Assembly: GCA_964550845.1 (NCBI GenBank)
Contig: CAZKAD010000001.1
Coordinates: 21,342 to 85,341 of the forward strand
Length of the DNA: 64,000 nt
Origin: an uncultured Gammaproteobacteria bacterium
GTDB taxonomy: Bacteria; Patescibacteriota; Patescibacteriia; Magasanikbacterales; UBA922
Direction: 5' to 3'
The notes beneath the pieces were generated by a model that did not search any database, was not told where the DNA came from, and saw nothing but the letters and a program-made list of their open reading frames with translations. The position numbers were made by a program, and so were the translations under genes. Positions 460 to 63,821 of this stretch are shown here, in pieces. The first letter of the stretch is position 1. The number at the start of each line of letters is the position of its first letter.

Positions 460-1422
460 ATGTCAATTAACTTCGAAATCTGGGAAGATAAAGTCTTATT
501 AGTTGAAGACTTCAATAACGATCTAAATCTTTTCTTGATTGATTTTAATCAATTGACTTTCAGGAATGTAATTTCTTTTTTCTCAATTGCCATTGATGGT
601 TATCTGCTTATTTTAACTCGGAAAAAGGTCTTTTTGCTTGATCGGAATATTCAAAGGGTGCAAAAACTTGATGTATATATTAATCATGCAATTAAATATG
701 AACGAGGAATTGCAATTATTGAACATATAGCAGGTTCAAGTTTGTTCCATTATTTTAGTTTTGATCCAGCAAAAGATAATTTTTTGATTCGAGAGCCTTT
801 CTTCACAGGATCTCTCGACGCAAAAACATACAACATTGTTGCTCGTGGGAACGAACTGATTCATTCTTATAAGCATGGGATCAATAGTATTGCACCAAAC
901 GGAAAGGATTACAAATTCAAGACTCTGTTTCCTTTTTTCGAAATTCTTAATCAACTCTTTGAATATAACGGATATATTTATTCATCTTCGTTTAAGCGCG
1001 ATTTGTTTAAAATAAATGATATCGATCCAAATAAAACTCAGGTAACTTTGTTTCATTCCATCTTGAAACCGGAAACTATTTTTCAAGATCGAAATTGGCT
1101 CATTTTAATCACATACGAAGGAATTCAAATTTTTGATATGGAAACAGAGACAATTTTTTGGCAATCTTCTTACTCACATCTTGATCAAAATATGTTACGT
1201 AATTCGGTCTACAAAAAGGGATTTGTCTGCCATTATGATACACATGGCACAAGTGTTCAAGTTTCGAAGTTAACCAATGCAATTGTCCCGATTGGCTTTC
1301 TTACTTTAATCGCAACAGGTCTAAGTTTTGTTGGAACGTCGGTGTGGTCTTCTTTTCTGATCAAAGATCTGTATGATCCTCGATTATTGGTGTTAATTTG
1401 GAGGATGGCTTTTTCAGATTAA
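460..1422 (+). CDS. LYDPR-box family protein, type I (large N-terminal domain)
   Basis: C-terminus VWSSFLIKDLYDPRLLVLIWRMAF matches the box shared with 11 other ORFs. Start placed at ATG 460 (MSINFEIW) because the 331 extension overlaps the previous ORF. Confidence 0.7.
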   Translation: MSINFEIWEDKVLLVEDFNNDLNLFLIDFNQLTFRNVISFFSIAIDGYLLILTRKKVFLLDRNIQRVQKLDVYINHAIKYERGIAIIEHIAGSSLFHYFSFDPAKDNFLIREPFFTGSLDAKTYNIVARGNELIHSYKHGINSIAPNGKDYKFKTLFPFFEILNQLFEYNGYIYSSSFKRDLFKINDIDPNKTQVTLFHSILKPETIFQDRNWLILITYEGIQIFDMETETIFWQSSYSHLDQNMLRNSVYKKGFVCHYDTHGTSVQVSKLTNAIVPIGFLTLIATGLSFVGTSVWSSFLIKDLYDPRLLVLIWRMAFSD

Positions 1423-1446
1423 TGTTTTCAATCTTTTCGGAGATTA

Positions 1447-1454
1447 AAAATTGA
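1447..1454 (+). promoter_or_regulatory. AAAATTGA promoter-like octamer
   Basis: 10 nt upstream of ATG 1464. Confidence 0.55.
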
Positions 1455-1463
1455 TTACTTGAA

Positions 1464-7060: not shown

Positions 7061-7089
7061 TAATCTAGCAAAAAATTCAACTTTTTCTT

Positions 7090-7113
7090 TTTCTTTTCTT
7101 TCCAGAAAAGAAA
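7090..7113 (+). terminator. polypyrimidine/polypurine hairpin 2 nt before the next start codon
   Basis: tttcttttct-ttcc-agaaaagaaa. Confidence 0.5.
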
Positions 7114-7115
7114 TC

Positions 7116-32257: not shown

Positions 32258-33235
32258 ATGAGTTCGAAGTTAACAAGGCAAGATCTGATTGAACGACTCA
32301 AAAATGTTGGTTATACTTCATTAAGCAGATTAAGAAAGGGAGAACTTGAACAGCTTTATCTGAAGATGCAAAAACAAGAGGAGAAGAAAGAAGAGAAAAA
32401 CGTGACGTTCCGAGAAACTGTAAGTATGAACATTATTACACAAAATATATCGACTCCCTCGAGTATATCAAATCATTCGACTTCCTCGAACATAACAACT
32501 CTTTCGGAACGTCCTTCGAATCCTTCAACACGCTTACCCACATCAGAACGTTTAACAACCAGACGAAATAAAAAGCCTGATCCAGTGTATTTTGAAGAAG
32601 AATTTGAGAAACTTCGAAATACAGAGATATCAAAATATACCAAAATTGTTCAGCTTGGGCAACCAGGAAAAGAAGGCACTACTTATTTAGTGATGGATCC
32701 AGTTCGTCCTGAAAAACGATATGCAATGAAATGTTTCCGGAGAACAAAATCAGAAAATCGCCTTGCCGAAGAGGCTCATTATCAATGGATTGTTTCAAAA
32801 GCTGGGTTAGCACCAAAAGTATATGAATTTAATCCGAGAGAAAAGTACATTTTAATGGAAGCTCTTGATCGAACACTCCTTAATATTCTTCATGAAAATC
32901 ATGGAAAATTTCCCGAATCACTTCAACAGAAAGTGATTGATTTGTACAAACAACTTGACGAAACTGGTGTAGCAGTCAATGATGGAAATCCAAGGAATAT
33001 TATGGAGAAAAATGGGAAACTTTATATGATTGATTATGGACTAGCTAAATTTTCGAATTCTTCTTCATTTCGCAAGTATCCAACACCAAATATGACGTTA
33101 CTTCCAAATGCCCTCTTTTTCTATATCAAAGAGAAGTTCGATACACGCGATTGGACATTACTTCGAAAATTGGTTCCAGCTGAAGCACTTCGAGAATACG
33201 ATCGATCATATTTACTCAAACATCAAAAGAGATAA
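32258..33235 (+). CDS. HeH/SAP-like motif plus atypical protein kinase
   Basis: N-terminus LTRQDLIERLKNVGYTSLSRLRKGELEQLYLKM. Kinase GKEGTTYLV, YAMKCF, NDGNPRNIM, MIDYGLAKF. Confidence 0.7.
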   Translation: MSSKLTRQDLIERLKNVGYTSLSRLRKGELEQLYLKMQKQEEKKEEKNVTFRETVSMNIITQNISTPSSISNHSTSSNITTLSERPSNPSTRLPTSERLTTRRNKKPDPVYFEEEFEKLRNTEISKYTKIVQLGQPGKEGTTYLVMDPVRPEKRYAMKCFRRTKSENRLAEEAHYQWIVSKAGLAPKVYEFNPREKYILMEALDRTLLNILHENHGKFPESLQQKVIDLYKQLDETGVAVNDGNPRNIMEKNGKLYMIDYGLAKFSNSSSFRKYPTPNMTLLPNALFFYIKEKFDTRDWTLLRKLVPAEALREYDRSYLLKHQKR

Positions 33236-33275: not shown

Positions 33276-33283
33276 AAAATTGA
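33276..33283 (+). promoter_or_regulatory. AAAATTGA promoter-like octamer
   Basis: 27 nt upstream of ATG 33310. A duplicated copy lies at 33234..33241. Confidence 0.6.
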
Positions 33284-33309
33284 TCTCCCATTTTATTCTA
33301 CAATTCAAA

Positions 33310-34415
33310 ATGAACTTCCTCATTACACACGGTCCTTGTCTTGATGGTGAAACTTGCGCTTTGTTTCTCAAACAATGGGCAGATGAGCAAAAAGAAACAT
33401 TGCAAACGGTATTTTGTTTCGCTGGGCAACTTTCAGTTGATTTGATTAAGAGGAAAATGCCTGAGAATACATGTCGAATCTTTATTTGCGATTTGACTGT
33501 GAATCAAGAAACACTCGAATATCTTAATAATCTGAACAAAGAAGTCTGGATCATCGATCATCATCGATCATCATCGATCATCATCAAAAACTTTCCAATG
33601 TTCCTGAAAAAATTACTTATCTTCATCGAGATCGTTGTGCGGCGTGGATTGTTTGGGAAAAATTTCGATCGAATTCTGAAGCAGTCACTCCAATTCTTCG
33701 GGGAGTTCAGCCTGAACTTCTTCAATATATCGACGAACAAGACCGAGGTCTTCATCACCGTCCTTATTTGAAAGAAATCATTTCTGCAGTTCATTTTGAG
33801 AAGAAGAGGATTGGACTTGAAAGAGTGTTTCAAGAATTTTCTGTCGATCGATATATTCAAATCGGAACGATTCTTGCTGAATATCGAAAAACCCAGGTCG
33901 ATGAGATGATTAAATATGGCTACAAACGAAAGTTTAATTGGAAGGGAAAAGAATATAACGTCTTGTTGATGAGTGGAGATCGAACTCTCCGAAGTGAGGG
34001 TCTCGAAGAATCAAAGGCTGACATTACCATGTTTTACACTTACGATGCAGCAACGAATGAATTTTGGGTTGCTTGTCGAAGTCAAGAACTTGATCTTTTG
34101 CCTATCATTTCAAATATCACCTGGTGTAGCGGGAATGAATTTCGAAAAGGTGGAGGGCATCCTAAAGCTTGCGGTTTTACCGTCAATCAAGCAACCACCT
34201 TCGAATTCATCACAATGATGGAAGGATCGGTGTCGCCTGCAAGTTATCATCAACCGAGTCAGACAGGATATAAAATTGAGCTACAGGGACTTGTCCCGCA
34301 AAAGTTTTGCTTTCCAATTTTCTTCCATAGTTGGATTAACGATTTGCTCAAAGCAATTGAGAAATTTGATCAAGTAATTTCTGAAGGGACTTCGAGGGTT
34401 GACGAAATTTATTAA
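33310..34415 (+). pseudogene. DHH/DHHA1 phosphoesterase disrupted by a frameshift in a 3x 10-bp repeat
   Basis: Motif I THGPCLDGETCA and motif III IIDHH lie in frame 1. Continuation ...QKLSNVPEKITYLHRDRCAAW... and DHHA1 GGGHPKACGF lie in the frame of ORF 33768..34415. The junction is at GATCATCATC x3. Confidence 0.75.
33556..33585 (+). repeat. 10-bp tandem repeat x3 (GATCATCATC, encodes DHH)
   Basis: Exact copies at 33556, 33566, 33576. Confidence 0.95.
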
Positions 34416-34864: not shown

Positions 34865-35998
34865 TTAATTTACCCTCAATCCGTATCGAGCTGCAAAGAC
34901 GTTTTCCAACCGCTTCTCTTCTTTTACGGTCATAAATTGTCCATTTTGAAAATAAACCAACCAGAGAGAAGCTTCATTGTACGACAAAGTTTGAATCATT
35001 TGATCAGGAAAGAAATTAATGATTAATTCCTCTCTCAGTCGATAATCCTTGACCAATTTGTCGGCTAATGTCTTCAATGACGATCCGAGTGAAGAAGGAA
35101 AAGATGAGATTAGTCCGTCTTCTTTCAGGCAAGCATAATCAATCATTGCAATCTCTTGTGGAGCTGGTCCATCAAAACATAATGCCAAATCAAAGTCAAT
35201 GATTGCAAATCCAGATCCTGAACGAACCAAGTTTCGAATGTAGAGATCATTGTGAACAATACCAATATGATGAAGTTTTTCAACCAAGGCCACAATCTTC
35301 TTTTGCTCGGCAGATGAAAATTTTCGAGCATGATCAAACGGGGTACATTGGGCAAGAATCGCCAAACCATATTGAACCTGACCAACTTGACAAACTTGAT
35401 AAGCGAGTAATTTCGCTCCAACTCCTGCCTTCCCAGCTCGCTGGAGCATTGTCAGCTCCCATTTAAATGCATCAAATCCTCGTTCACGAAGATCGGTCAG
35501 TTTGAATACAACATTTTTACCTCCATAAACTCCCTTGAAGACAACTCCTCCAGATCCTCTTCCAATCTCATCACCTTGTCCAAAATCTGTAAGACATTTA
35601 TCCATTGATGAATACATCTTGACCTGAATTTTTTGTCCAATTTCTTGGTAATCTTCAAGAGGAGAAGTTAGCAAAGCTTCTTCAGCTTCGGTACATTCAT
35701 TAATTGAAATATTACCTCCGGTTATAAGTCGATGCAAGAGTTCTGCAACTACATCAGCTTTATTTCCTGCAATTGGAGGATTGGCTTGTTTAGCAAGTTC
35801 TTGAATCTTTTTCGCTGAAGCATGAATAATTTCGATTGCACTTGGAGTCTGCAAAGCCCGATTTCTCTTTAAGAGCCGTTCGCGAATTTCACTAATTGAA
35901 TCTGACGAATAAAACGAAACCGGATATGCCAACTTCATATTCAACTCGAGGAGAGCCTTTTTTGTCTCGGCTCGGCGGATTTTTGCTTCAAGATCCAT
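34865..35998 (-). CDS. HeH/SAP-like motifs plus protein kinase
   Basis: AKKIQELAKQANPPIAGNKADVVAELLHRL. Kinase IGRGSGGVVFKG, VVFKL, IVHNDLYIRNLV, IIDFDLA. Confidence 0.8.
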   Translation of the reverse strand: MDLEAKIRRAETKKALLELNMKLAYPVSFYSSDSISEIRERLLKRNRALQTPSAIEIIHASAKKIQELAKQANPPIAGNKADVVAELLHRLITGGNISINECTEAEEALLTSPLEDYQEIGQKIQVKMYSSMDKCLTDFGQGDEIGRGSGGVVFKGVYGGKNVVFKLTDLRERGFDAFKWELTMLQRAGKAGVGAKLLAYQVCQVGQVQYGLAILAQCTPFDHARKFSSAEQKKIVALVEKLHHIGIVHNDLYIRNLVRSGSGFAIIDFDLALCFDGPAPQEIAMIDYACLKEDGLISSFPSSLGSSLKTLADKLVKDYRLREELIINFFPDQMIQTLSYNEASLWLVYFQNGQFMTVKEEKRLENVFAARYGLRVN

Positions 35999-36660: not shown

Positions 36661-37644
36661 ATGACATATCGAAAAGCAATCATTTATCGACGTGTGTCGA
36701 CTGCAGCCCAGCTTAATGGAAATGCATTGTTGACACAACAATTGCAATGTGAAGAATGGATTCAAGCTAGATATCCCGAATTAGAAATCAAAACTCGAAC
36801 TGACGTCGGAAGTGGCTGGAATAAAAATAAACGAGAGCCATATCAATTGCTTGAGAAAATGCAGAATATAGTTGATTCATGCACGAAGACATTGATTGTC
36901 ATTTATTGTATCGATCGATTCCTTCGAGATGTTAAAACGGCAGAAGAAATCTTACCTAAACTCAAGGAGAATAAAAATCGAATCGTGTTTTTGCTTGAAA
37001 ATCTTGACTATCACAATTTTTCTGGCAAGGATGTCTACTTGAAAATTATTAGGGGAGTCGAATCTGCTCAAACAGAATCAGATGTTAAATCCAAACGCAT
37101 GAAAGATGCCTGGAAAACAAAATGTATGCTGGAAAACAGCCCTGAACTTGAAGATGAGGAATGGAAACTTGAATATGATTCAGAATCTGAATCTGATGAT
37201 GAAAACAAAAGTGCTTTGAATCGAAGGAAAATTGAACCTGTAAAAGTTCAAGAAACTAAACTCGTTCAAGCTCCTGCTTATCGTTTGGCTAATCGACCTC
37301 AAGCGTCGATTCAACCTCCTCAAGCGTCGATTCAACCTCCTCAAGCGTCGATTTATCAATGGCCTCCCCAATTATTGATTGACAATCACTTCGACGATCC
37401 TCTCTTTTCAAAGAAAGAGAAAATTAAAAGGTTAATTCAGACTTGTTCAGAAGGACGTTATACTATCAAATCATTGAATCAACATCTTCTTCAACTTTCT
37501 TCAGTCGCCTTTTCTCTTCAAGTCGAAGAAGTTCCAACCTCGTGGGATGGAATGGCAACTTTACTAAATCTTTTTGAGATCTGCTGGGTGCCAGAAATTC
37601 CGAAAGGAGAATGGACTGCCGAGAAAGCAAAGGCTTTTAATTAA
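36661..37644 (+). CDS. serine recombinase (resolvase/invertase catalytic domain)
   Basis: AIIYRRVSTAAQ (nucleophile Ser), IYCIDRFLRD. Internal 3x PQASIQP repeat. Confidence 0.75.
   Translation: MTYRKAIIYRRVSTAAQLNGNALLTQQLQCEEWIQARYPELEIKTRTDVGSGWNKNKREPYQLLEKMQNIVDSCTKTLIVIYCIDRFLRDVKTAEEILPKLKENKNRIVFLLENLDYHNFSGKDVYLKIIRGVESAQTESDVKSKRMKDAWKTKCMLENSPELEDEEWKLEYDSESESDDENKSALNRRKIEPVKVQETKLVQAPAYRLANRPQASIQPPQASIQPPQASIYQWPPQLLIDNHFDDPLFSKKEKIKRLIQTCSEGRYTIKSLNQHLLQLSSVAFSLQVEEVPTSWDGMATLLNLFEICWVPEIPKGEWTAEKAKAFN
37297..37356 (+). repeat. 21-bp coding tandem repeat, about 2.8 copies (PQASIQP)
   Basis: cctcaagcgtcgattcaacct at 37297, 37318, 37339. Confidence 0.9.
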
Positions 37645-37684: not shown

Positions 37685-37710
37685 TTTCTTGACTCTTCGG
37701 AGTCAAGAAA
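37685..37710 (+). terminator. gene-end hairpin (11-bp stem, TTCG loop)
   Basis: tttcttgactc-ttcg-gagtcaagaaa. Confidence 0.6.
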
Positions 37711-37713
37711 TGT

Positions 37714-37721
37714 AAAATTGA
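37714..37721 (+). promoter_or_regulatory. AAAATTGA promoter-like octamer
   Basis: 36 nt upstream of ATG 37757. Confidence 0.65.
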
Positions 37722-37756
37722 TTTATATTCACTCTCTGACTTGAGTAAAGATATCA

Positions 37757-39193
37757 ATGAGTATTCGAGCTGGCTGCCGAATTCCATCAAAAGGGTTATT
37801 AATTAATTTAGATACCAAAGAGATTCTTAATTTCTCAGATCATCTTAACTTGAACATAGGAGGCATCTATGATTACTCACCTCAACGGAAATGCGGATCT
37901 CTTGATTTCCCGTCCGATGATGAAATAAAAGGATACAATATGGTTTGTTACAATGGCAAACTTGATAAGTTTGCCACAATGACTAGAAAATATATTTATT
38001 TCTGGGATCTTTCCACAATTAGAGAAAAGGTTCCTTATCAGAGATGCAAACGTCCATCCTCACCATGTGTGAATTTCGGATATCTTGATAATGAATGTGT
38101 AATTGTGCTTGAAGACGAATCTTACAAAGATATTTATACCTTATACACTTACAAAACAAATTTTGTTGGACAAAAGCTTGAATTAATTGCCAAGATTCCA
38201 ACCGAATGTGATAATATTGTGACAGATGGAAATCAAATTATAGTCGGTGACGAACATTCTTCGGTTTACTCAATTTTTGAATTTGATGAAAAACAGAGAT
38301 TGATATTTAGTGACGTCATTCAAGTTGAACAACCTGACCATTTAATAACTAGTATTTGTACGCCGAAGTTTCAGGTATTTCTATCAAATTTTCAAATGCA
38401 GATTCGCTGTAAAATCGGTAACTTTTCTACTCGAACAAGTAGCACCGTCCAAGATGCTGATCCAACTACATTATATGTTATTCGAACATATAATGTAGTT
38501 GGATCAGCATCTTCAATAATCCATTTCAACTCGTTCAATCACGATAATTTCGACTTTATTATCATCGCCAATGATTACGGTTTTGACGACGAATCTAATT
38601 TCGAGGATATTGATGAATTTTGGGATAATTATACTCCTTTGAATATCTATCGAATAAATCTCCCAAATAAAGAGATTATTCAAATCGACGAAGAAGTCGA
38701 TTACTGGGAAAATAATGATCAATTTCGAGCAGCTAGACAAATAGTTCATTATCCGGCTCATGATTTTTTAATCCTCCAAAGAGATGTTATCGAAATATGG
38801 AATCTTTTTCCTATGTTTAAGCTGTGGGCATCTGATCAAATGTTCGATAAATGGGAAAAGATTGCAATTACCAATAAACTCGAAGCAACTGGAATCACCC
38901 ATGGTGTTCAAAAAACAACCATCTTTCTTGCACCATGCATTTTTGCAAATCTGATTGCATCAGGGTTATTTGAATTAAACAAGGAGGAAATTTTAACTTC
39001 CTTTTTACAAAAAGATTTGTATGATCCTCGTTTGTTAATGACGATTTGGTCTTTTGTTTACGAGCCAAGATTGGCAAGTGGAGATTACCAGATTAATGAA
39101 ATCTCTTCAGATGATGATTCCTTAAATGAAGATGAAGATTCGTTCTTCCGTCTACGATCCATGATTGTCGAATGGAGATTACCAGATCAATAA
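37757..39193 (+). CDS. LYDPR-box family protein, type I (large), with acidic C-terminal extension
   Basis: ILTSFLQKDLYDPRLLMTIWSFVY. N-terminal region resembles ORF 460..1422. Confidence 0.8.
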   Translation: MSIRAGCRIPSKGLLINLDTKEILNFSDHLNLNIGGIYDYSPQRKCGSLDFPSDDEIKGYNMVCYNGKLDKFATMTRKYIYFWDLSTIREKVPYQRCKRPSSPCVNFGYLDNECVIVLEDESYKDIYTLYTYKTNFVGQKLELIAKIPTECDNIVTDGNQIIVGDEHSSVYSIFEFDEKQRLIFSDVIQVEQPDHLITSICTPKFQVFLSNFQMQIRCKIGNFSTRTSSTVQDADPTTLYVIRTYNVVGSASSIIHFNSFNHDNFDFIIIANDYGFDDESNFEDIDEFWDNYTPLNIYRINLPNKEIIQIDEEVDYWENNDQFRAARQIVHYPAHDFLILQRDVIEIWNLFPMFKLWASDQMFDKWEKIAITNKLEATGITHGVQKTTIFLAPCIFANLIASGLFELNKEEILTSFLQKDLYDPRLLMTIWSFVYEPRLASGDYQINEISSDDDSLNEDEDSFFRLRSMIVEWRLPDQ

Positions 39194-39319
39194 AATCTCT
39201 TTAAATGCCGATTCTCTAAACGATAATGAAGATTGACATCATCTTTTAGTATTATTTATCTCTCGAGATAGATAAAATGATTTTATTATGCGTTCTCAAA
39301 AGTAAAGACGTTCCATCCC

Positions 39320-39982
39320 ATGAATATCGATTTGTTTGACAAATTTCCTTTATCATGTCTAAAATTTAGCGGATCAATTCGGGCCCGTTATGAAAACTTT
39401 GATCAATTTGTTCAGCTTTGTTCCATTATTGCTGAGAAAAAACAGTATCACACTATACATTTCAATCAAGAAGATGCCCGAAAAACTAATTTTACTGATA
39501 TTTCAATTCAATATCATTCGATAAAGAGGATTAATGAAGTTTGTTATTCATCTGAGATGAACGTATTAAAAATAAAGAAAACAATTTTAGGCATTCGATA
39601 CATCAACATCGATAATCTTGATGTACTGCAAAAATTACTTCAGTCACCTACGTTGTATCCTGGAGCTACATTGGACATTGATATTGATTTAGATTATGAA
39701 TCAAGCAACGAAACGAAAAATATAAGCACTAAAAATGAATTGGCTGTATTGGACATGATGATTCAGTCAGAATCACCATTGAGGAATCTTGATATTAAAT
39801 ATTATGTTGGCAATCTTGGTGGAATGAGAGAATTGAATATCAGTAGCTTACTCCGATTGATGCAGTTTGTTTGCTGCGGGTTGAATCTACGTGATTATTC
39901 TACATGGTCTTCCTTTCTAACTCGAGAATTATATGATCCGAGAATACTTAGTTTAATTGCGAAATTTGCATTTTGCATGTAA
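39320..39982 (+). CDS. LYDPR-box family protein, type II
   Basis: ESPLRNL...LMQFVCCGLN...WSSFLTRELYDPRILSLIAKFAF. Confidence 0.8.
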   Translation: MNIDLFDKFPLSCLKFSGSIRARYENFDQFVQLCSIIAEKKQYHTIHFNQEDARKTNFTDISIQYHSIKRINEVCYSSEMNVLKIKKTILGIRYINIDNLDVLQKLLQSPTLYPGATLDIDIDLDYESSNETKNISTKNELAVLDMMIQSESPLRNLDIKYYVGNLGGMRELNISSLLRLMQFVCCGLNLRDYSTWSSFLTRELYDPRILSLIAKFAFCM

Positions 39983-39988
39983 AATTGA
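39981..39988 (+). promoter_or_regulatory. AAAATTGA promoter-like octamer
   Basis: 43 nt upstream of ATG 40031. Confidence 0.65.
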
Positions 39989-40030
39989 TTTCTCTTCGAG
40001 ATAAAAACAATTTATATTATAATTATAGTA

Positions 40031-40693
40031 ATGTTTTCAAACTTACATGAAATAAAATCAGAATTAGTTGGTACAATTAAAACTATTTCTCGATCAGGTG
40101 AAGAGTTTGTCAAACTTTGCGATCAACTTCAACATCTAAATCGTCATACTATTTATTTTTCGACTAATTTTCGATGGTATGCTAATGTTGATGAAAAATT
40201 GGAAGATTTTGAGGACTACGATAGCATTTTTTCTCTTACGATCATTGAATTTGGGACTCAAAATCAATTTGAATTTGAAGCTAAAACTGCCATCTTCAGA
40301 AATAAATGTGTTGAACAAATTCCCCGAATTAACCATATTGATCTCTGGCATGCAGAAGAAATGAATTATCAACTTAATTGCCCTGGTGCAACAGTCGAAC
40401 ATCATTATCGTTCGGGACATAAGAAGGAGATTCATAAAAATTATTTCATACTGCTTCATGATCTCCTCAAATCAGAATCGATGTTGCGCAATTTGAACAA
40501 TGTGGTAACCACGAAAAATGCCATTCGAATCACAGAACTTCTCTCTTTAATGAAAATCATTTGTCTTGGGCTTGTAGATGAGAGCGATTTGAATTCTTTT
40601 TTAACTCGAGAATTGTATGATCCTCGATTGTTAATTACGATTGCCGAATTTACAGATCAACATTCGATTTTAATCAGCGTCAGCCCTTTTTGA
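40031..40693 (+). CDS. LYDPR-box family protein, type II
   Basis: ESMLRNL...LMKIICLGL...NSFLTRELYDPRLLITIAEF. Confidence 0.8.
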   Translation: MFSNLHEIKSELVGTIKTISRSGEEFVKLCDQLQHLNRHTIYFSTNFRWYANVDEKLEDFEDYDSIFSLTIIEFGTQNQFEFEAKTAIFRNKCVEQIPRINHIDLWHAEEMNYQLNCPGATVEHHYRSGHKKEIHKNYFILLHDLLKSESMLRNLNNVVTTKNAIRITELLSLMKIICLGLVDESDLNSFLTRELYDPRLLITIAEFTDQHSILISVSPF

Positions 40694-40710
40694 TGTTTAA
40701 AAACAAAAAT

Positions 40711-40737
40711 GATTTCTCTCTTCTCGAAGAGAGGAAA
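40711..40737 (+). repeat. family-associated intergenic palindrome GATTTCTCTCTTCTCGAAGAGAGGAAA
   Basis: Near-identical copies at about 41457..41485, 42244..42273 and 42901..42929, each just upstream of a type II start codon. Confidence 0.85.
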
Positions 40738-40749
40738 AATAACAATCTC

Positions 40750-41460
40750 ATGTTATCTTCTCTAAAAGAATCGGGACTTGAACTCGTCGGAACATTAAAA
40801 ATTGTTTCACGCAGTTGTGATGATTTTGTCAAACTGTGCCAACAATTTGACAATCTTTATTTTCATCGCCTCTCTTTTTCGGACAATTTCGAATCATATG
40901 TACAAGAGGACAGTAGATTGATCGATTTTGAAGATCAAGACGAAATCTTTGCTCTCACGGTCGTTCAGTTCTTATCAGAATCGGAATATAAATTTAAGGT
41001 AAATAGTTATATTTTCGGAAATGAATGTAATTATCAGATTCCGAATGTTTCTGAAGTTGAACTTTGGGAAGAAAAAGAAATTGATTGTGACTTTGATTGC
41101 CCGAATGCGAGAGTTATTCACAATTATTTTCCTCGATTTGGATTGGAAGTAAATTCTGGAAAAATCTCAAGAAGTCAGGAGGTTTGTAAAAATTATTTAG
41201 TGATGCTTCAACGACTACTCACTTCGGAATCGAGATTGAGAAACTTAGACAATGTAGTGGACCGTTTTAATCATCGAATAAGAGAATTACTGCAATTAAT
41301 GAGACTTATTTGTCTTGGGCTGAATGAAGAGAATTCAAATTCGTCCTTTCGGGACTCGAATATTTTGTCTACCTTTTTGGTCAAAGATTTGTATGATCCT
41401 CGATTGCTGATTCTTATTGCACAATTTGTTGACCAATATTCAATTGTCTTTCAAAACTGA
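40750..41460 (+). CDS. LYDPR-box family protein, type II
   Basis: ESRLRNL...LMRLICLGL...STFLVKDLYDPRLLILIAQF. Start moved to ATG 40750 downstream of the palindrome. Confidence 0.8.
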   Translation: MLSSLKESGLELVGTLKIVSRSCDDFVKLCQQFDNLYFHRLSFSDNFESYVQEDSRLIDFEDQDEIFALTVVQFLSESEYKFKVNSYIFGNECNYQIPNVSEVELWEEKEIDCDFDCPNARVIHNYFPRFGLEVNSGKISRSQEVCKNYLVMLQRLLTSESRLRNLDNVVDRFNHRIRELLQLMRLICLGLNEENSNSSFRDSNILSTFLVKDLYDPRLLILIAQFVDQYSIVFQN

Positions 41461-41500
41461 TTTCTCTCTTCTCGAAGAGAGGAAAATTATTATTTCAGTT

Positions 41501-42187
41501 ATGTTCCCTGCTCTCAGCGAATTAAATCCCGAATTAATCGGAACATTTAAAATCGTCTCCCGATCAAGTGAAGATTTTATTAAACTTTGTCACAAGCTGC
41601 AGAATCAATCTCATCATATAATCTCCTTTTCGGAGAATTTTCAATCATGTATTGAAGATGACGAAAGATTGATCAATTTTGAAAACCAAAATGAAATTTT
41701 CGCCCTTACGGTGCTTGAATTCAGATCAGAAAATCAATTTCAATTAGATGTTGAGACCTTTATTTTCCGTCAGCAATGCGATTCACAAATTCCTGGTGTT
41801 TCCACGATTGAACTTTGGAGTGAAATGGAAATTAATTACCAATTTGATTGTCCCGGTGCAACGGTGGTTCATCGTTACTTTCCTTCACGTCAGAAAAATA
41901 GAATGACTGGTAAAACTACATTGATACCGCAAAGTAAAAAGTATTTCCAAATGTTGCAAAGGTTTCTTCTTTCTGAGTCGCCTTTCCGTAACTTGAATAA
42001 TGTAATTCCTCCTTATGATAGTGTTTCAGTCTCAGAACTCCTTCATTTAATGAGAATTACTTGTCTCGGTCTTGTGGATGATGGGATAATGAACTACTTT
42101 TTAACTCGTGAATTGTACGATCCTCGATTGCTATATTTGATTGCGAAGTTTGGAGATACTTATTCAATTGTGGGGGAATTGGAGTAA
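41501..42187 (+). CDS. LYDPR-box family protein, type II
   Basis: ESPFRNL...LMRITCLGL...NYFLTRELYDPRLLYLIAKF. Start at ATG 41501. Confidence 0.8.
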   Translation: MFPALSELNPELIGTFKIVSRSSEDFIKLCHKLQNQSHHIISFSENFQSCIEDDERLINFENQNEIFALTVLEFRSENQFQLDVETFIFRQQCDSQIPGVSTIELWSEMEINYQFDCPGATVVHRYFPSRQKNRMTGKTTLIPQSKKYFQMLQRFLLSESPFRNLNNVIPPYDSVSVSELLHLMRITCLGLVDDGIMNYFLTRELYDPRLLYLIAKFGDTYSIVGELE

Positions 42188-42245
42188 TCAGAGCAATAGA
42201 AGTAATCGGAGTAATCGGAGTAATCGGAGTAATCAGAGTAAAACT
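42183..42245 (+). repeat. 9-bp tandem repeat, 7 copies (AGTAATCRG)
   Basis: Starts at the stop codon of gene 41501..42187. Confidence 0.85.
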
Positions 42246-42277
42246 GATTTTCTCTCTTCTCGAAGAGAGGAAAAGTA

Positions 42278-42904
42278 ATGTCTTTTTTCAAAGATATAGA
42301 TCCATCAGAGTTTACATCTCTTACAGCAGAGTTAAAGTTTAGTACATTTGAAAGATTAGTTCATTTCATTCAACAAAGTAAAACTGAAAACTCTTATATC
42401 ACCTTAACTTTTAACCGGAGTATCACTGATACATTTGAGGCTAATGCTGAAGTTTGTAGATATTCAGATTCATCTTTCGTCATTCATATACATGTCGAAT
42501 TGAAAGAAGGTCAATCCTTAACTATTCCAAATATAGACGAAGTAAACATCGATCTTAAATATTTATCCACTAAACCCGACATTGATTTTCCGCAAGCAAT
42601 AGTAAAATTACTTTGTGATAGTTCAAGTAGAAATCAACTTGAACCAAAAGCTTTATCCATTTTACTTAATTCAACTTCAAAGCTAAGAAATCTTCCTTTC
42701 TTCTATACTTCATTACATGATAATAATGATGAAGAGCTCAAACTCAACTTTTTGATTCGATTGATGAGACTGGTTTGTTGTGGAATGAGCGAAGAGAATT
42801 CAAACATTTGGTCTACCTTTCTCACAAAAGAATTGTATGATCCTCGATTAATGATTCTGATTGCGCGATTCATCGATCAATGTTCAGATGTCTTACAAAA
42901 CTGA
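42278..42904 (+). CDS. LYDPR-box family protein, type II
   Basis: TSKLRNL...LMRLVCCGM...WSTFLTKELYDPRLMILIARF. Confidence 0.8.
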   Translation: MSFFKDIDPSEFTSLTAELKFSTFERLVHFIQQSKTENSYITLTFNRSITDTFEANAEVCRYSDSSFVIHIHVELKEGQSLTIPNIDEVNIDLKYLSTKPDIDFPQAIVKLLCDSSSRNQLEPKALSILLNSTSKLRNLPFFYTSLHDNNDEELKLNFLIRLMRLVCCGMSEENSNIWSTFLTKELYDPRLMILIARFIDQCSDVLQN

Positions 42905-42936
42905 TTTCCTCTCTTTTCGAAGAGAGGAAAGTAATA

Positions 42937-43571
42937 ATGTCACTCATTAAAGATGTCGATCTTTCAGAGATTATATCTTTGAAAATGGAACTTAAATTTG
43001 GTACCCCTGAAAAATTAATCCGTTTCATTCAACAAAATAAAGGCCAAAATTTTCAATGCAAATTGACCTTTAGCCGTAGTAAAACTGACACATTTGAGGC
43101 TGCTGTCGAAGTTCGCAAACTTTCGAAAATTTTCGTTGTTGATATGCATGTCGAGATGAAAGAAGATCAATCTATAACCATTCCGGATATAGATGAAATC
43201 AACATTAATTTTTCATATTTATCCGAAAAACCAGATATCGATTGCCCGGGAGCAAAAGTATATTTATACTGCGGTGGTTCAATTACTGATCAAATCGAGA
43301 TAGAAACTTTAACTATTTTACTTAATTCAACTTCAAAGCTGAGAAATCTTCCTTTCTTTTGCGTTCCATGGAACAGTATTGACAGAGAAATCTTCCTTTC
43401 TTTTGCGTTCCATGGAACAGTATTGACAGAGAGCTCAAACTCAACTTTCTGATTCGATTGATGAGACTTGTTTGTTGTGGTGTTTGTGAAGAGGATAATG
43501 TATGGCAATTCTTTTTGACTCAAGAATTGTATGATCCGAGATTACTTAGTGGCATTGCAGCGTTTAATTAA
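42937..43571 (+). pseudogene. LYDPR-box family member, type II, frameshifted by a 44-bp tandem duplication
   Basis: Reads ...TSKLRNLPFFCVPWNSIDRE, then duplicated unit 43341..43384 / 43385..43428. Removing one copy restores ...LKLNFLIRLMRLVCCGVCEEDNVWQFFLTQELYDPRLLSGIAAFN, with stop at 43569..43571. Confidence 0.75.
43341..43428 (+). repeat. 44-bp exact tandem duplication
   Basis: gagaaatcttcctttcttttgcgttccatggaacagtattgaca x2. Confidence 0.95.
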
Positions 43572-43620
43572 TTTAGAGAGTCTCGAAGAGACGTTTAACT
43601 AATTCAGAGAGTCAAGAGAA
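43562..43620 (-). repeat. TTAAAC-hairpin repeat, reverse orientation (about 31-bp unit, 2 copies)
   Basis: gtttaaYtaattYagagagtc twice, with gtctc-gaa-gagac stem. Confidence 0.7.
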
Positions 43621-43719
43621 AGTAGCTAATTCAAAATATTCATCTCCTTTCGAAGAGATAAAAAGTGATTAATTCTTTTGCGTATAAAAGAATTAAAATA
43701 AAAGAATTAAAATTAAAAG

Positions 43720-44403
43720 ATGGACAAACCTTTTAACCAGTCTCAAGAGACGTTTAATCCAATTGAGATTTTTCGTATTGAATCTGACACTTTGATTAAG
43801 AAGCTGGGAAAAGGTCCACGTGGAAATATATTGAATGAATATTTTGAAGTGCCTAAAAAATTTACTCAAGGAATGTTGTACTTCTATTTTTCGCATCATG
43901 TATTTGACCACTTTGAAGAAAAGCTCGACACAAAAATTATCTTCCCTCGAAATCAGATAAAAAATTTTCAACTCTTTCTTAAGCAAAATTACCCGGATAC
44001 TTCATCATTTCGATTTCTCTATTATTTACATCAAATACATCCAGAACATTGTATTATTGGTATCGAAAATGGACAAGGTGTCCATCATTTTTTCAAACAT
44101 GACTATGGATTGTACGGAGATATGTATGAAAACTACTATCATTTTCTCGAAATCATTGTTCGATTGATTGGTGAAAAAGTTGATCATGGTTATGATCCAC
44201 TTGGAGAATTGGTTGCCAATGGATTGATCGACAATGGACAATTTTATGCCTTTCTCACAAAAGAATTGTATGATCCTCGTGTTTTAATTATGATTCATCA
44301 ATTTGCCTTCGATCCAAATAAAACTCGATATTTGTCTGCTTCCGGAGAAGTTATGGAAGAAGAAATTAAACAGCTTCAACAAGATGAAAATAATGAAGAT
44401 TAA
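43720..44403 (+). CDS. LYDPR-box family protein, type III
   Basis: FNPIEIFRI...YFYFS...NYPDT...GEKVDHGYDPLGELVANGL...FLTKELYDPRVLIMIHQFAFDP. Confidence 0.8.
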   Translation: MDKPFNQSQETFNPIEIFRIESDTLIKKLGKGPRGNILNEYFEVPKKFTQGMLYFYFSHHVFDHFEEKLDTKIIFPRNQIKNFQLFLKQNYPDTSSFRFLYYLHQIHPEHCIIGIENGQGVHHFFKHDYGLYGDMYENYYHFLEIIVRLIGEKVDHGYDPLGELVANGLIDNGQFYAFLTKELYDPRVLIMIHQFAFDPNKTRYLSASGEVMEEEIKQLQQDENNED

Positions 44404-44487
44404 ATTCTTTTATCTCCTCTCGGGGAGATATAAAAAATGAATTTCCGACGAAACTCAAAGGTATAAAAGAAAGATAGAATAAAAGAA

Positions 44488-45189
44488 ATGACTCAATTTA
44501 CACCAATTGATATCTTTCGAATTGATGCCCAGATTCTAAGTGAGAAAATTGATAATATTAAAAAATATGTCCAGCTCGATGAAAAATTTTCTCGAGGTAT
44601 ATTATACTTTTATTTTTCATGGGAAATAGAAATGGTAAAAGTTTCTCAAAAAGACTGCTTTCACAAGTTCAAGGAATTTCTTCGGCAAAATTATCCAGAT
44701 ACTTTTCCTTTCCATTTTCTCTATCATCTTCATCGGAAAGCAAACAGATCTTACACTTTAGCCGAAAATAACCGAGGAGTTATATATACATATATACATG
44801 ATTATGGTTTGTATGGGAATGAAGTTAGTAATCGTGATAGCTTTTTTGAAACTACTATTCGAACATTTGGTGAAAAAGTTGATCATGGTTATGATCCCCT
44901 TGGCGAATTAGTTGCTTCAGGATTAAACAGTGAAGGCATTTTTCATGCCTTTCTCACAAAAGAATTGTATGATCCTCGTGTTTTGATTTTGATTCATCGA
45001 TTCGCCTTTGATCCAGATAAAGAAAAATTCTACAATGTATATGGAAAGATTGTCGAAGAAGACCTCGACGAGAACGATTCGATGTCATTTGACATAGCAT
45101 CAGACGAAGAGATATTCGATGAAAGTGATGAGGAGATATTCGATGAAAGTGACGATGAAAGTGACGATGAAAGTGATGAAGAGAATTAA
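44488..45189 (+). CDS. LYDPR-box family protein, type III, acidic repeat tail
   Basis: Same architecture, FLTKELYDPRVLILIHRFAFDP, with tail SDEEIFDESDEEIFDESDDESDDE. Confidence 0.8.
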   Translation: MTQFTPIDIFRIDAQILSEKIDNIKKYVQLDEKFSRGILYFYFSWEIEMVKVSQKDCFHKFKEFLRQNYPDTFPFHFLYHLHRKANRSYTLAENNRGVIYTYIHDYGLYGNEVSNRDSFFETTIRTFGEKVDHGYDPLGELVASGLNSEGIFHAFLTKELYDPRVLILIHRFAFDPDKEKFYNVYGKIVEEDLDENDSMSFDIASDEEIFDESDEEIFDESDDESDDESDEEN

Positions 45190-45248
45190 TTATGTTTGTT
45201 TCCTCAAGAGGAAGCAAAAAATTTTAGTTTGTAATCAACACCCGTTGT

Positions 45249-45992
45249 TTAGTCTTCATTATCACTATTATCACTATTCGCCATGGCCAAAATAGCCGCG
45301 TACTCTGGACCAGGGGCGAGATGCTCATCACGATAATTATTAAAATCTTCTTCAAATTCCTCACCAAAGGCATCAAAATCTTTGATTTTGTTCGGATCGA
45401 AGGCAAATTGATGAATCAAAATCAGAATTCTCGGGTCATACAATTCTCGAGTCAAAAATGTATGAAAACAACTATTTCCTTCCGAATCATTCAGTCCTGA
45501 AGCAACCAATTCTCCAAGTGGATCGTAGCCGTGATCAACTTTTTCACCGAGCAAGCGAACAAAAATTTCAAGAAGATGATGATGACAGTCTACTGTATCT
45601 CCATACATTCCATAGTCATGAGTGTAATATCTCGTAATTCCTTGATTATTTTCAAGTAAAATAAGACAATATTTTGGATTATCACCATGAAGACGTATCA
45701 AATAACGAAATGCTGAAGTATCAGGGTAATTCTGTTGAAGAAAAAGTTTAAAATTTTCATACTGGCTTTGAGTGAAGACTATTTCACTATTTTCGGATTT
45801 GTGTTTGCTACGCTTAAATATATGATGAGAAAAATAAAAGTACAATGTCCCTTGAGAAATCTTTTTTGATAATTCGAAATGTTCATTTAGCGCATTACCA
45901 CGATGACATTTCCCCAGCTTTTCAATCAAGATTTGCGCGTCAATTCGAAAGATTTCAATTGGATTAAATGTCGCAAGGGACTGGTTAAACAT
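45249..45992 (-). CDS. LYDPR-box family protein, type III
   Basis: FNPIEIFRI...GEKVDHGYDPLGELVASGL...FLTRELYDPRILILIHQFAFDP. Start at ATG 45992, because the GTG at 46055 lies in hairpin 46051..46078. Confidence 0.8.
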   Translation of the reverse strand: MFNQSLATFNPIEIFRIDAQILIEKLGKCHRGNALNEHFELSKKISQGTLYFYFSHHIFKRSKHKSENSEIVFTQSQYENFKLFLQQNYPDTSAFRYLIRLHGDNPKYCLILLENNQGITRYYTHDYGMYGDTVDCHHHLLEIFVRLLGEKVDHGYDPLGELVASGLNDSEGNSCFHTFLTRELYDPRILILIHQFAFDPNKIKDFDAFGEEFEEDFNNYRDEHLAPGPEYAAILAMANSDNSDNED

Positions 45993-46050
45993 CTCTTTAG
46001 TTTGACTATCTAATGATATCTTTACAATTTGATCAATGGACAAAGGTAAA

Positions 46051-46078
46051 ATCACTTTTCCTCTTGAGGAAAAGTGAT
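46051..46078 (-). terminator. gene-end hairpin
   Basis: atcacttttcctc-tt-gaggaaaagtgat. Confidence 0.55.
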
Positions 46079-46082
46079 AGAT

Positions 46083-46448
46083 TTATTGCTTAGCTCCTTC
46101 TTCGAAACGCTTATTGAGTTCTTCGAAACGCTTATTGAGTTCTTCGAAACGCTCATTGAGTTCTTCGAAACGCTTATTGAGTTCTTCGAAACGTGTGTCC
46201 TTTGAATTTATTTGCAAACTTCCTTTGAATTTTGTTAAAGCATTTCGAAATGAGTCTGGATCATCTATATTGAACATATACGAAGTCTCCGAACAATTTG
46301 ACGAAATGGTACCTCGAAATAAATTCAAATGTACAATCACATTTCTGCTATGAATTGAAACAGTTTCACGATTTGGAGATATCCGGATAATTGGACTTTC
46401 CAATTTAAGTTCGTTGGCAACTATTTCTGCCATCTCTAAAGCAGACAT
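46083..46448 (-). CDS. hypothetical protein with C-terminal RFEELNK heptad repeats
   Basis: Paralogue of 46547..46891 (MAEIVANELKLESPII / MAEMIAKELKLANPII). About 4.6 x 21-bp repeat. Confidence 0.6.
   Translation of the reverse strand: MSALEMAEIVANELKLESPIIRISPNRETVSIHSRNVIVHLNLFRGTISSNCSETSYMFNIDDPDSFRNALTKFKGSLQINSKDTRFEELNKRFEELNERFEELNKRFEELNKRFEEGAKQ
46100..46196 (-). repeat. 21-bp coding tandem repeat, about 4.6 copies (RFEELNK)
   Basis: cttcgaaacgcttattgagtt at 46100, 46121, 46142, 46163, 46184. Confidence 0.9.
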
Positions 46449-62975: not shown

Positions 62976-63821
62976 TCAAACCAATTCTGGTTGTGAAAAA
63001 GACCAAATTAAACCGAGCAATCTTGGATCATATAGATCAGTTAACAAAAAATTGTACCACGGCGAAGCTGGTTTCAAACCATAAAAAATAAGAATTAAGA
63101 AAGTCTGGGAAAGCTCATACACGCCGTAATTCCGAATTGGTATCAACAAATTTGGCGCTGGATTTTTTCTATGAATTAAAAAGTAGAATAGATGACGTAA
63201 AGTTTTATATCTTCTTTCATATCGTTTACACTTTAGACAAGAATAATTCCATTGTATGAGTGTATATATAACGGTTTTAACATTATACTTTGTAGATGAA
63301 TTAAAAAAGTTAAATAATTGGCAATATCCATTAATATGATAAAAATTAACTTTACATTGATCAAGTGGGATTCGATTAATAACACAATGTACCTGGAAAT
63401 TTCCCTCGGCTTGAGTAAAATGATTTATTGGAACTTGATCCAAGACCTGTAATCGATGATAGATTTTTCGAGGTGTATTCAAATTGATTGTAAATTTGTG
63501 ATGGTTTGCGATAAGTTGCAATTTTTTTGCAATCTCCCGTTCAAGTTGAATAAGTTTTCGAGACGGAGCAGTCGGTAATCGAATATATATGCTACATACT
63601 TTTGGTTTGACATTGCTAATAAAAGTATTAAACGGAGAAGATGGTACAAAACCTTCATAATCATAAAAAATATTTATTACAAGTGGCATATAGGGATCAA
63701 ATTTTCTTTCATCAATTTGAGGGACAAAAAGATTCCATTTCGAAATTAATTCATCATCGTCGTTCATAACGAATATATTTCTATCTCTTCGATTAAATGA
63801 GAGATCATTTTTATTGCTCAA
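62976..63821 (-). CDS. LYDPR-box family protein, type IV
   Basis: C-terminus PWYNFLLTDLYDPRLLGLIWSF. N-terminus unrelated to types I-III. Confidence 0.75.
   Translation of the reverse strand: MSNKNDLSFNRRDRNIFVMNDDDELISKWNLFVPQIDERKFDPYMPLVINIFYDYEGFVPSSPFNTFISNVKPKVCSIYIRLPTAPSRKLIQLEREIAKKLQLIANHHKFTINLNTPRKIYHRLQVLDQVPINHFTQAEGNFQVHCVINRIPLDQCKVNFYHINGYCQLFNFFNSSTKYNVKTVIYTLIQWNYSCLKCKRYERRYKTLRHLFYFLIHRKNPAPNLLIPIRNYGVYELSQTFLILIFYGLKPASPWYNFLLTDLYDPRLLGLIWSFSQPELV

Follow-up and report, generated by a model that had tools for sequence, protein, structure and literature searches.

A conserved three-helix box on unrelated proteins of giant viruses, a candidate docking module

A small box of ~40 residues is common to 12 open reading frames (ORFs) of the window, as we call the whole stretch of 64,000 nucleotides analysed here, and it recurs, conserved, on different folds, at either protein terminus and in tandem arrays of several giant-virus contigs. 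We propose, with a probability of about 0.55, that this box is an undescribed autonomous docking module which would link target-binding domains of many kinds to a single, constant partner, a candidate for which is a cullin-RING adaptor. A first-pass annotation had already pointed to such a box; the observation is confirmed and the family is larger than first described.

The box, L..LI..GL-(6-16 aa)-W..FL.[KR][DE]LYDPR[LIV]L.LI..F, was detected by a regular expression scan, by alignments and by HMM scans of six-frame ORFs, both where it had been annotated and in further copies (Table 1). Its invariant residues in the alignment of window copies are G, F-L, L-Y-D-P-R and I. We also used an independent HMM constructed from 101 box segments from outside the window, none of which reaches 55% identity with a box of the window. 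Run against 663 ORF segments of the window, it recovered exactly the 12 boxes with E-values of 1.4e-15 to 1.6e-21, the best being that of gene 42278-42904, and no 13th match up to E=10.

Table 1. Genes of the window that carry the box (positions are those of the window)
Design	Gene	Strand	Product	Box	Remarks
I-a	460..1422	+	320 aa from ATG 460	1261-1419	box at extreme C-terminus; ORF open from 331
I-b	37757..39193	+	478 aa	38909-39067	first gene of 8.3-kb array; acidic tail after box
II (IIc)	39320..39982	+	220 aa	39821-39979	
II (IIa)	40031..40693	+	220 aa	40505-40663	AlphaFold-modelled member
II (IIa)	40750..41460	+	~236 aa from probable ATG 40750	41281-41439	
II (IIa)	41501..42187	+	~228 aa from probable ATG 41501	42005-42163	
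II (IIb)	42278..42904	+	208 aa	42725-42883	
II (IIb)	42937..43571	+		43419-43568	pseudogene; N-part in one frame (to 43452), box in another
III	43720..44403	+	227 aa	44158-44316	acidic tail after box
III	44488..45189	+	233 aa	44857-45015	long acidic D/E-rich tail after box
III	45249..45992	-	247 aa from ATG 45992	45393-45551	ORF open to GTG 46055
IV	62976..63767	-	263 aa from ATG 63767	62985-63143	ORF open to TTG 63821

The mechanical ORFs of two IIa genes begin at TTG codons, TTG 40690 for gene 40750..41460 (the box of which has a long inter-helix loop) and TTG 41417 for gene 41501..42187. The downstream ATG codons are probably the true starts and were preferred because of orthologues: P0014, orthologue of the 40750 gene, starts at the equivalent Met. 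Similarly, P0002 shares its start Met with 45249..45992 and the design IV orthologue P0017 has 263 aa. Orthologues were also found for I-a (L005:9002-9964, N-domain 97% identical) and I-b (P0012 at L003:2933-4309). The six type II genes previously listed do carry the motifs S-E-S-x-L-R-N-L and LMRLxCxGL, but one of them is a pseudogene broken by a perfect 44-bp tandem duplication (43341-43432); its orthologues in two relatives, L003:7256-7846 and L001:1111-1701, are intact and have 196 aa. The motifs FNPIEIFRI, YFYFS, NYPDT and GEKVDHGYDPLGELVA.GL described for type III were confirmed too. Separately, we observed a perfect 29-nt inverted repeat (38451-38513) within the I-b gene.

The sequence identifies the window as a giant-virus (NCLDV) segment. 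It encodes a family B DNA polymerase, an mRNA capping enzyme, an RNA polymerase subunit, RNR, a FEN1-like nuclease and several kinases, all NCLDV hallmarks, and has syntenic relatives in contigs L001, L003 and L005; no ubiquitin-system gene was found in it. Expression signals of Mimiviridae type are present, namely an octamer upstream of genes that resembles AAAATTGA, and palindromic hairpins where genes end. The window holds 26 matches to AAAANTGATT for 7.3 expected (3.5-fold enrichment), a number reached in 0 of 100 shuffles. An AAAAnTGATT element precedes every box gene, each with a hairpin upstream as well, and this element resembles the Mimiviridae early-promoter octamer (PMC6163669). The box genes may thus belong to those expressed early.

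Fusions of the box to further domains, which the first-pass annotation had suggested searching for, were found outside the window. In an exhaustive HMM search of 1.84 billion proteins, the box profile matched 232 representative clusters at E<=1e-3, and the non-box parts of the box proteins fell into 94 BLAST clusters. By Pfam, the box accompanies a WD40 propeller (P0045/P0157, P0113), ankyrin repeats, to which it is C-terminal (P0125/P0167; none among the window genes), and DUF4116 repeats, where it is N-terminal (P0122, P0152). In the close relative L005, a WD40+box gene adjoins the orthologue of I-a, with PolB following shortly downstream. Expanded arrays are found on other giant-virus contigs as well: six box genes lie within 16 kb of L009, and at least 12, together with giant-virus-type genes, on the 81-kb contig JACCDN010544314.1. 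An IMG/VR locus search with a broad alignment returned one weak locus, and a word-index protein search with box alignments, unsuited to such a short domain, returned nothing for one alignment and nine short fragments for another. Literature searches by motif, by accession and by DUF4116 turned up nothing of relevance. In another protein, P0072, the box precedes a domain that resembles type III, possibly a circular permutation; at 18 bits and 20% in hhalign, this is a lead only.

The position of the box bears on what it may do. Of 154 representatives, 143 have it at the C-terminus, 124 of them no more than 30 aa from the end and 19 at 31-80 aa from it, and the other 11 have it at the N-terminus; on one contig, three paralogues carry an N-terminal box. 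The prevalence of the extreme C-terminus would suit a sorting or incorporation signal, which would send viral proteins that are otherwise unrelated to virions, viral factories or membranes and would not act as an effector-type adaptor to a host enzyme, as would the strongly hydrophobic third helix of the box, the restriction of the family to giant-virus-like contigs and the lack of a link to known ligase boxes. We nevertheless consider this unlikely: besides the N-terminal boxes, some proteins extend 30-80 aa past the box in acidic tails, so that the box is not a strict terminal signal; the third helix, with ~11 residues, is too short to span a membrane; and the WD40 and ankyrin partners are typical of substrate receptors. 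Sorting would in any event be a special case of docking to a common partner.

An AlphaFold model of the box alone predicted three helices in a compact arrangement with a mean pLDDT of 82 (core ~90). The first helix corresponds to L..LI..GL and is followed by the variable loop, the second to W..FL, and the invariant turn LYDPR leads to the third, LL.LI..F. Helix capping and tight packing alone might account for the invariance of G and YDPR, which need not then form an interface. In the full-length model of one type II protein (40031..40693; pLDDT 78, pTM 0.72), the three helices lie C-terminal to an alpha/beta N-domain; searches of PDB and BFVD with this model returned no matching fold. Its N-domain, the one window N-domain modelled, reached a pLDDT of 85-94 against 63-70 for the box part, consistent with the box being a separately folding, tethered unit in this protein. 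Box profiles compared with PDB sequences gave no homologue; the only matches, designed helical repeats sharing 'DPRLL', were rejected as relatives, since this string caps helices and does not indicate homology.

The box might also serve self-association, as it is a small, amphipathic unit of three helices and conserves more hydrophobic positions than the core of a 40-residue domain requires; it would then be a helix bundle that forms homo- or hetero-oligomers and increases avidity with no external partner. The many paralogues, likely co-expressed from one array under the same upstream motif, would fit. This is quite improbable in view of the monomeric box model, compact and confident alone, and of the absence of a coiled-coil heptad pattern.

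Outside the box, profile-profile comparison separated the window proteins into five groups, I-a, I-b, II, III and IV. Several unalignable designs had indeed been announced, at least four, of which four were listed; the count is five because the two 'type I' proteins are unrelated outside the box (hhalign 0.7%). The long repetitive region ascribed to them was not borne out, self-comparison detecting no internal sequence repeats. At the sequence level, I-a and I-b showed no sign of a WD40 propeller either (no Pfam match, hhalign 0.1% against a WD40+box profile), and a Pfam scan gave no meaningful family for any window box protein, 460-1422 and 37757-39193 included. Scanning 132 box segments at E<=10 likewise yielded no informative Pfam family. 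That the types cannot be aligned outside the box held, as all cross-type hhalign probabilities among window N-domains were below 4%, I-a and IV resembling no other design; these profiles are shallow (2-19 sequences) and could miss very remote homology between types. Within type II, hhalign related IIa, IIb and IIc to one another at 67-84% (IIc with IIa/IIb at 67-69%), whereas BLAST linked none of them.

The annotation had read this diversity as domain shuffling rather than simple divergence. Different folds and placement at either terminus, both seen outside the window, speak for shuffling, but in the window the boxes cluster by N-domain type, with those of I-a, I-b and IV grouping together. 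As box similarity follows partner type, the fusions appear to be old and subsequently amplified by tandem duplication. On these comparisons, recent box swapping is absent in the window genome, and most copies go back to old fusions that were later duplicated in tandem and diverged. In close orthologues, the box was not the more conserved part (87.9% identity versus 89.5% in the N-domain). The modularity of the box is, as we interpret these data, well supported, mainly from outside the window.

A single paralogous family could in principle leave a similar picture, its N-terminal regions having diverged beyond recognition from one ancestor around a constrained box, with no shuffling. Tandem arrays are typical of duplication and divergence, box similarity tracks N-domain type as just described, the shallow profiles leave room for remote homology, and the type II subgroups, unlinked by BLAST, are joined by profiles. 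We still hold single ancestry to be improbable, since genuine WD40, ankyrin and DUF4116 repeats, whose folds differ, all carry this box, and since it can occupy either end of a protein; moreover, the modelled type II domain is alpha/beta, neither propeller nor solenoid, and the cross-type comparisons noted above are negative.

Codon third positions vary in the box core (Pro CCT/CCG/CCA, Arg CGA/CGT/AGA, Leu TTG/TTA/CTG), hence the box is conserved at the protein and not the DNA level. Chance similarity or a conserved DNA element at gene ends (terminator, promoter, recombination site) was rejected as having a negligible probability: promoter-like motifs and hairpins do lie directly downstream of several boxes, but all copies preserve the reading frame, they differ at synonymous positions, the independent profile gives E-values of 1e-15 to 1e-21 and the box is kept as protein in 232 divergent clusters differing in codon usage and GC.

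We thus favour the docking module. A giant-virus clade would have fused an autonomous ~40-residue three-helix box to many protein-binding or otherwise unrelated domains. The variable domain, be it WD40, ankyrin, DUF4116 or one of the novel I-a, I-b, II, III and IV, would recognise a target, and the box would connect all members of the family to the same partner. The leading candidate, suggested by the analogy to F-box, SOCS-box and ANK/PRANC proteins, would be a host or viral hub, for example a cullin-RING ubiquitin-ligase adaptor. The family may have arisen from a few old fusions, which were then duplicated in tandem while their variable part diverged rapidly. A stronger version is tentative and, to us, rather doubtful: the LYDPR box might represent a new class of hub-docking domain, counterpart of the F-box, the SOCS/VHL-box and the DCAF H-box, by which each genome of the clade could bring dozens of rapidly evolving target-binding domains to one machine of the host (or the virus), in the most plausible case a cullin-RING ubiquitin ligase, and so reprogram host protein stability early in infection.

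Giant viruses possess huge numbers of unannotated paralogues. The box provides a common handle for ~12 ORFans of the window and for more than 230 public protein clusters. It is new in that, for this small conserved domain joined to WD40, ankyrin, DUF4116 and novel domains, we found neither a family-library entry nor a literature description. If it docks to one partner, naming that partner would tell how the entire superfamily acts, and the box would constitute a new interface by which viruses of protists hijack their hosts, much as PRANC does for poxvirus ankyrin proteins.

We compared the box with the known families it recalls. None of 132 box segments matched the Pfam F-box (PF00646 / PF12937), PRANC (PF09372) or SOCS box (PF07525) models, even at E<=10, and PRANC was absent from the top Pfam families of 148 full-length box proteins. 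A 118-sequence box profile gave hhalign probabilities of 0.3% with a small alignment of four F-boxes and of 0.2% with one of ten SOCS boxes (two PDB-verified), both weak tests. Structural comparison with solved SOCS/VHL-box chains did not reveal a likeness. On these tests the box does not belong to the PRANC, SOCS-box or F-box families, and its likeness to them is one of analogy.

In F-box proteins, LPxE begins the first helix, a conserved Trp lies in the third, and Skp1 binding joins the protein to a Cul1 ligase. Cellular and giant-virus F-box proteins, with their WD40, LRR or FNIP partners, share with the present family the principle of a constant ~45-residue three-helix box and interchangeable binding domains, and the N-terminal placement is found in a minority of our proteins. 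Sequences and profiles are not similar, however, and the conserved residues come in another order, the Trp of the box being in the second helix, with a proline turn before the third.

The SOCS box, which binds Elongin B/C, consists of a BC box, [STP]LxxxCxxx[VIL], and a Cul5 box, LPxP. By eye, the spacing of our box is reminiscent of it, with an amphipathic first helix and then a GL-x-x-P turn, GLPLP in SOCS2 and GLYDP here, but the turn of our box reads L-Y-D-P and not L-P-x-P. An alignment equating L..LI..GL with the BC box and GLYDP with GLPLP was considered but set aside, as none of the formal tests supported it. SOCS-box receptors carry a ~40-residue three-helix C-terminal unit after WD40 (WSB) or ankyrin (ASB) domains (PMC4812663, PMC3779351). 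The box shares this size, helix number and position C-terminal to WD40 or ankyrin repeats, a feature that is not SOCS-specific.

Poxvirus ANK/PRANC proteins form a multigene family of large DNA viruses, with many, often arrayed paralogues in which a short helical C-terminal box follows variable repeats (PMC3185573). P0125/P0167, with ankyrin repeats and a C-terminal box, are built alike. The box differs in having no PRANC/F-box Pfam match or LPxE, in occurring on many non-ankyrin domains and in being also N-terminal. Other multigene families of large DNA viruses, such as the ASFV MGFs and the ankyrin/BTB/WD expansions of Mimiviridae, likewise form tandem arrays of fast-diverging paralogues, presumably for host interaction (PMC5753266). 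In contrast to these whole-protein families, what unifies the present one is a small terminal box across unrelated domains.

The shared C-terminal box (LYDPR box) of the first-pass annotation is real, with twelve copies in the window, as obtained by motif scan, by alignments and by scanning every six-frame ORF with HMMs. Ten of these form an 8.3-kb array, nine on the plus strand and the last on the minus strand. In the window copies the conserved unit reads h..hh..GL, a variable loop of 6-16 residues, then [WFL]..FL.[KRQ][DE]LYDPR[LIV][LM].[LTG]I..[FM]; G, FL, LYDPR and I are invariant in the alignment. An independent profile was built from 101 non-window box segments, each sharing <55% identity with every window box. 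Run on 663 window ORF segments, it recovered exactly the same twelve boxes (E 1e-15 to 1e-21) and no further match up to E=10, which excludes chance. Third codon positions vary within the box core, hence the constraint acts on the protein and not on a DNA element, and recent gene conversion is excluded.

We modelled the box with AlphaFold using a 59-residue query and a 118-sequence box alignment. The model (mean pLDDT 82, ~90 over the core) is a compact three-helix unit (H1 17-28, H2 34-40, H3 47-57) in which YDPR supplies both the turn and the H3 N-cap. No Pfam model, F-box, F-box-like, PRANC and SOCS_box included, matched any of 132 box segments even at E<=10. Similarly, a PDB sequence search returned nothing except designed repeats having a DPRLL helix cap in common, and the motif was not found in a literature search. 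Comparison by hhalign with SOCS-box and F-box alignments, in which two of the SOCS sequences were verified, gave 0.2-0.3%. Membership in the F-box, PRANC or SOCS-box families was rejected on the Pfam and hhalign results, and these negative comparisons together argue that the box represents an undescribed domain family outside all three.

With the box removed, BLASTP linked window proteins only within type II and within type III. Profile-profile comparison, with profiles built from orthologues, related the three type II subgroups to each other (67-84% probability) and gave <4% for all other pairs. Iterative profile searches brought the type II set to 19 sequences and the type III set to 14 and never merged window types; no Pfam domain was detected in the nine intact window proteins scanned (at least one per design). 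Several N-terminal regions with no detected relation thus exist, as first annotated, but they number five (I-a, I-b, II, III and IV) instead of four. The pooled "type I" is not one type, since I-a and I-b reach a profile-profile probability of 0.7% outside the box, and the long repetitive region ascribed to it was not recovered, internal repeats being undetectable in I-a, I-b or type IV proteins. Plain divergence of a single family, which would leave all N-terminal regions homologous, was given lower weight; profile comparison found no homology across types, structural comparison being limited to the type II model. This AlphaFold model (19-sequence alignment A6 as input; pLDDT 78, pTM 0.72) has an alpha/beta N-domain at pLDDT 85-94 and, after it, the helical box region at pLDDT 63-70; Foldseek gave no significant match against the PDB (best E 0.1, TM <0.3) or predicted viral structures.

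The window (GC ~35%) encodes a family B DNA polymerase (PolB), mRNA capping enzyme, RNR small subunit, Nudix, FEN1/XPG nuclease, RNase H, dual-specificity phosphatase, serine recombinase and the N-terminal two-thirds of Rpb1 of RNA polymerase. From this gene content, it is a fragment of an NCLDV (giant-virus) genome. Its close syntenic relatives are three contigs, L001 (51 kb, NCBI assembly GCA_020049755.1) and L003 and L005 (both from JGI metagenome 3300038404). Protein-kinase genes are many for 64 kb, with domain matches in six ORFs, three of them below the Pfam gathering cutoff. The Rpb1 ORF runs for 978 aa, stops where domain 5 begins and is called at the same length in L001; the largest polymerase subunit seems to be split or interrupted here. 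A Hint/intein-like domain (Hom_end_hint, residues ~115-190) interrupts the gene of a kinesin motor, and two adjacent overlapping ORFs with weak DHH and DHHA1 matches may together represent a phosphoesterase gene that is split or frameshifted.

Coordinates of features in the window (other contigs where named)
Feature	Position	Strand	Remark
Isolated box gene, I-a	460-1422
Isolated box gene, IV	62976-63767
Box-gene array	37757-45992	+ and -
Frameshifted type II copy	42937-43571
44-bp tandem duplication	43341-43432		perfect, 2.1 copies
Inverted repeat in I-b	38451-38513		perfect, 29 nt, 5-nt spacer
9-bp tandem repeat AATCGGAGT	42177-42241		7.2 copies; gene stop at 42187
AAAA[N]TGATT (examples)	37714-37723, 39981-39990, 40705-40714, 41453-41462, 42240-42249, 42897-42906, 43661-43670, 46050-46059(-)
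Palindromes	37685-37710, 39251-39278, 40713-40736, 41461-41484, 42248-42273, 42911-42926, 44399-44442, 46051-46078
Serine recombinase	36661-37644	+	resolvase domain
Small ORF beside array	46083-46448	-
Spacer, I-a to AAA-like gene	1422-1464		41 nt
WD40+box gene P0157	L005:10001-11251
Kinesin	16275-18800	-
Rpb1	54051-56987	+
DHH/DHHA1 ORFs	33280-33771, 33768-34415	+
Protein kinases (examples)	6996-8768, 21063-22580, 23217-24566, 32258-33235, 34865-35998
Kinase in unrelated 81-kb contig	L015:953-2698		adjoins box array

Beyond the window, 1.84 billion representative proteins were searched exhaustively with a 12-sequence box HMM profile. We obtained 232 proteins at E<=1e-3, 15 of them at E<=1e-10, with a sharper consensus (L..LI..GL......W..FLT.GLYDPRLL.LI..F). 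Among 154 representatives, the distance from the box end to the C-terminus is at most 30 residues in 124 and 31-80 residues in 19; in 11 the box is N-terminal, with >80 residues after it. BLAST sorted the non-box parts into 94 clusters, the majority without a Pfam domain. Further fusions, the search for which had been proposed at first pass, were found in public proteins: Pfam identified, among others, WD40 propellers (P0045/P0157, P0113, weakly P0153), ankyrin repeats (P0125/P0167) and, after an N-terminal box, DUF4116 repeats (P0122, P0152). Carried by different folds and at either protein end, the box is thus a mobile module. Box genes have also expanded on other giant-virus-like contigs: six in 16 kb of L009, one with an N-terminal box; three paralogues on a groundwater contig (L010), each 530-620 aa long with the box at the N-terminus; and at least 12 in the 81-kb JACCDN010544314.1. 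The last contig encodes in addition a methyltransferase of the poly(A) polymerase regulatory subunit type, collagen-repeat proteins and a kinase.

In L005, the closest relative of the window virus, the gene for the 416-aa WD40+box protein P0157 sits between the I-a orthologue and an AAA-like gene upstream of PolB. The short corresponding spacer of the window is without it, which points to gain or loss of this gene beside I-a. Box-core identity clusters by partner type, type II together and type III together, the boxes of I-a, I-b and IV forming a third group with a common Trp in H3, and L003 orthologues are collinear with the window array. Both observations argue that the fusions are older than this virus lineage and that copy number rose by tandem duplication; box-core identity gave no sign of recent box swapping in the window. 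P0072, an N-terminal box followed by a type III-like domain (only 18 bits, 20% hhalign probability), is a tentative, possible permutation.

One type II copy, frameshifted by a tandem duplication, may be either a genuine pseudogene or an artefact of assembly; L003 and L001 carry the orthologous gene intact (196 aa). The inverted repeat within the I-b coding sequence accounts for ~17 extra residues absent from the L003 orthologue P0012 and looks like an in-frame palindromic insertion or inverted duplication. The 9-bp repeat comes right after a stop codon, and the relatives' ORF runs into it, giving the tail ...NWSNRNNRSN. Immediately upstream of the array lies the serine recombinase gene, whose C-terminal half contains QASIQPP three times; the small ORF adjoining the array ends in five copies of a heptad-like, coiled-coil-like RFEELN[KE] motif.

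All box genes and many further genes of the window are preceded by AAAA[N]TGATT at a distance of ~20-70 nt (26 matches in the window versus 7.3 expected); in the type II tandem genes this motif includes the TGA stop of the preceding gene. Beside it, intergenic spacers of the array hold short AT-rich palindromic hairpins, e.g. TTTCTCTCTTC..GAAGAGAGGAA. The motif resembles the Mimiviridae early-promoter octamer AAAATTGA, and the hairpins the 'hairpin rule' 3'-end transcript signals (PMC6163669 and PMC4402537, jointly for octamer and hairpins). By this likeness, early expression of the box genes is suggested, which would fit a host-takeover role.

WD40 and ankyrin repeats are classic protein-binding scaffolds and, with DUF4116 repeats, are the fused variable domains that can be recognised. 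Because a small, separately folding helical unit stays nearly invariant while the fused domains exchange and diverge freely, the box would be a docking module for one constant partner. We put at roughly 0.55 the probability that family members are docked through the box to a single partner they share. A ubiquitin-ligase component, proposed by analogy, is the leading candidate for this partner and is rated as less likely than not. A sorting or packaging signal, or a self-association unit, was given lower weight than docking. The modularity claimed by the first-pass annotation holds at the family level; for all window types it is consistent with the data and not proven structurally.

Functionally, the box proteins come closest to SOCS-box receptors (WD40- or ankyrin-SOCS; PMC4812663, PMC3779351) and to poxvirus ANK/PRANC proteins (PMC3185573), in which variable binding domains are linked to cullin-RING ligases. 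An adaptor function of the box would follow this analogy. In kind, the family resembles known receptor families of viruses and hosts that join a box to a variable domain; the box itself is new.
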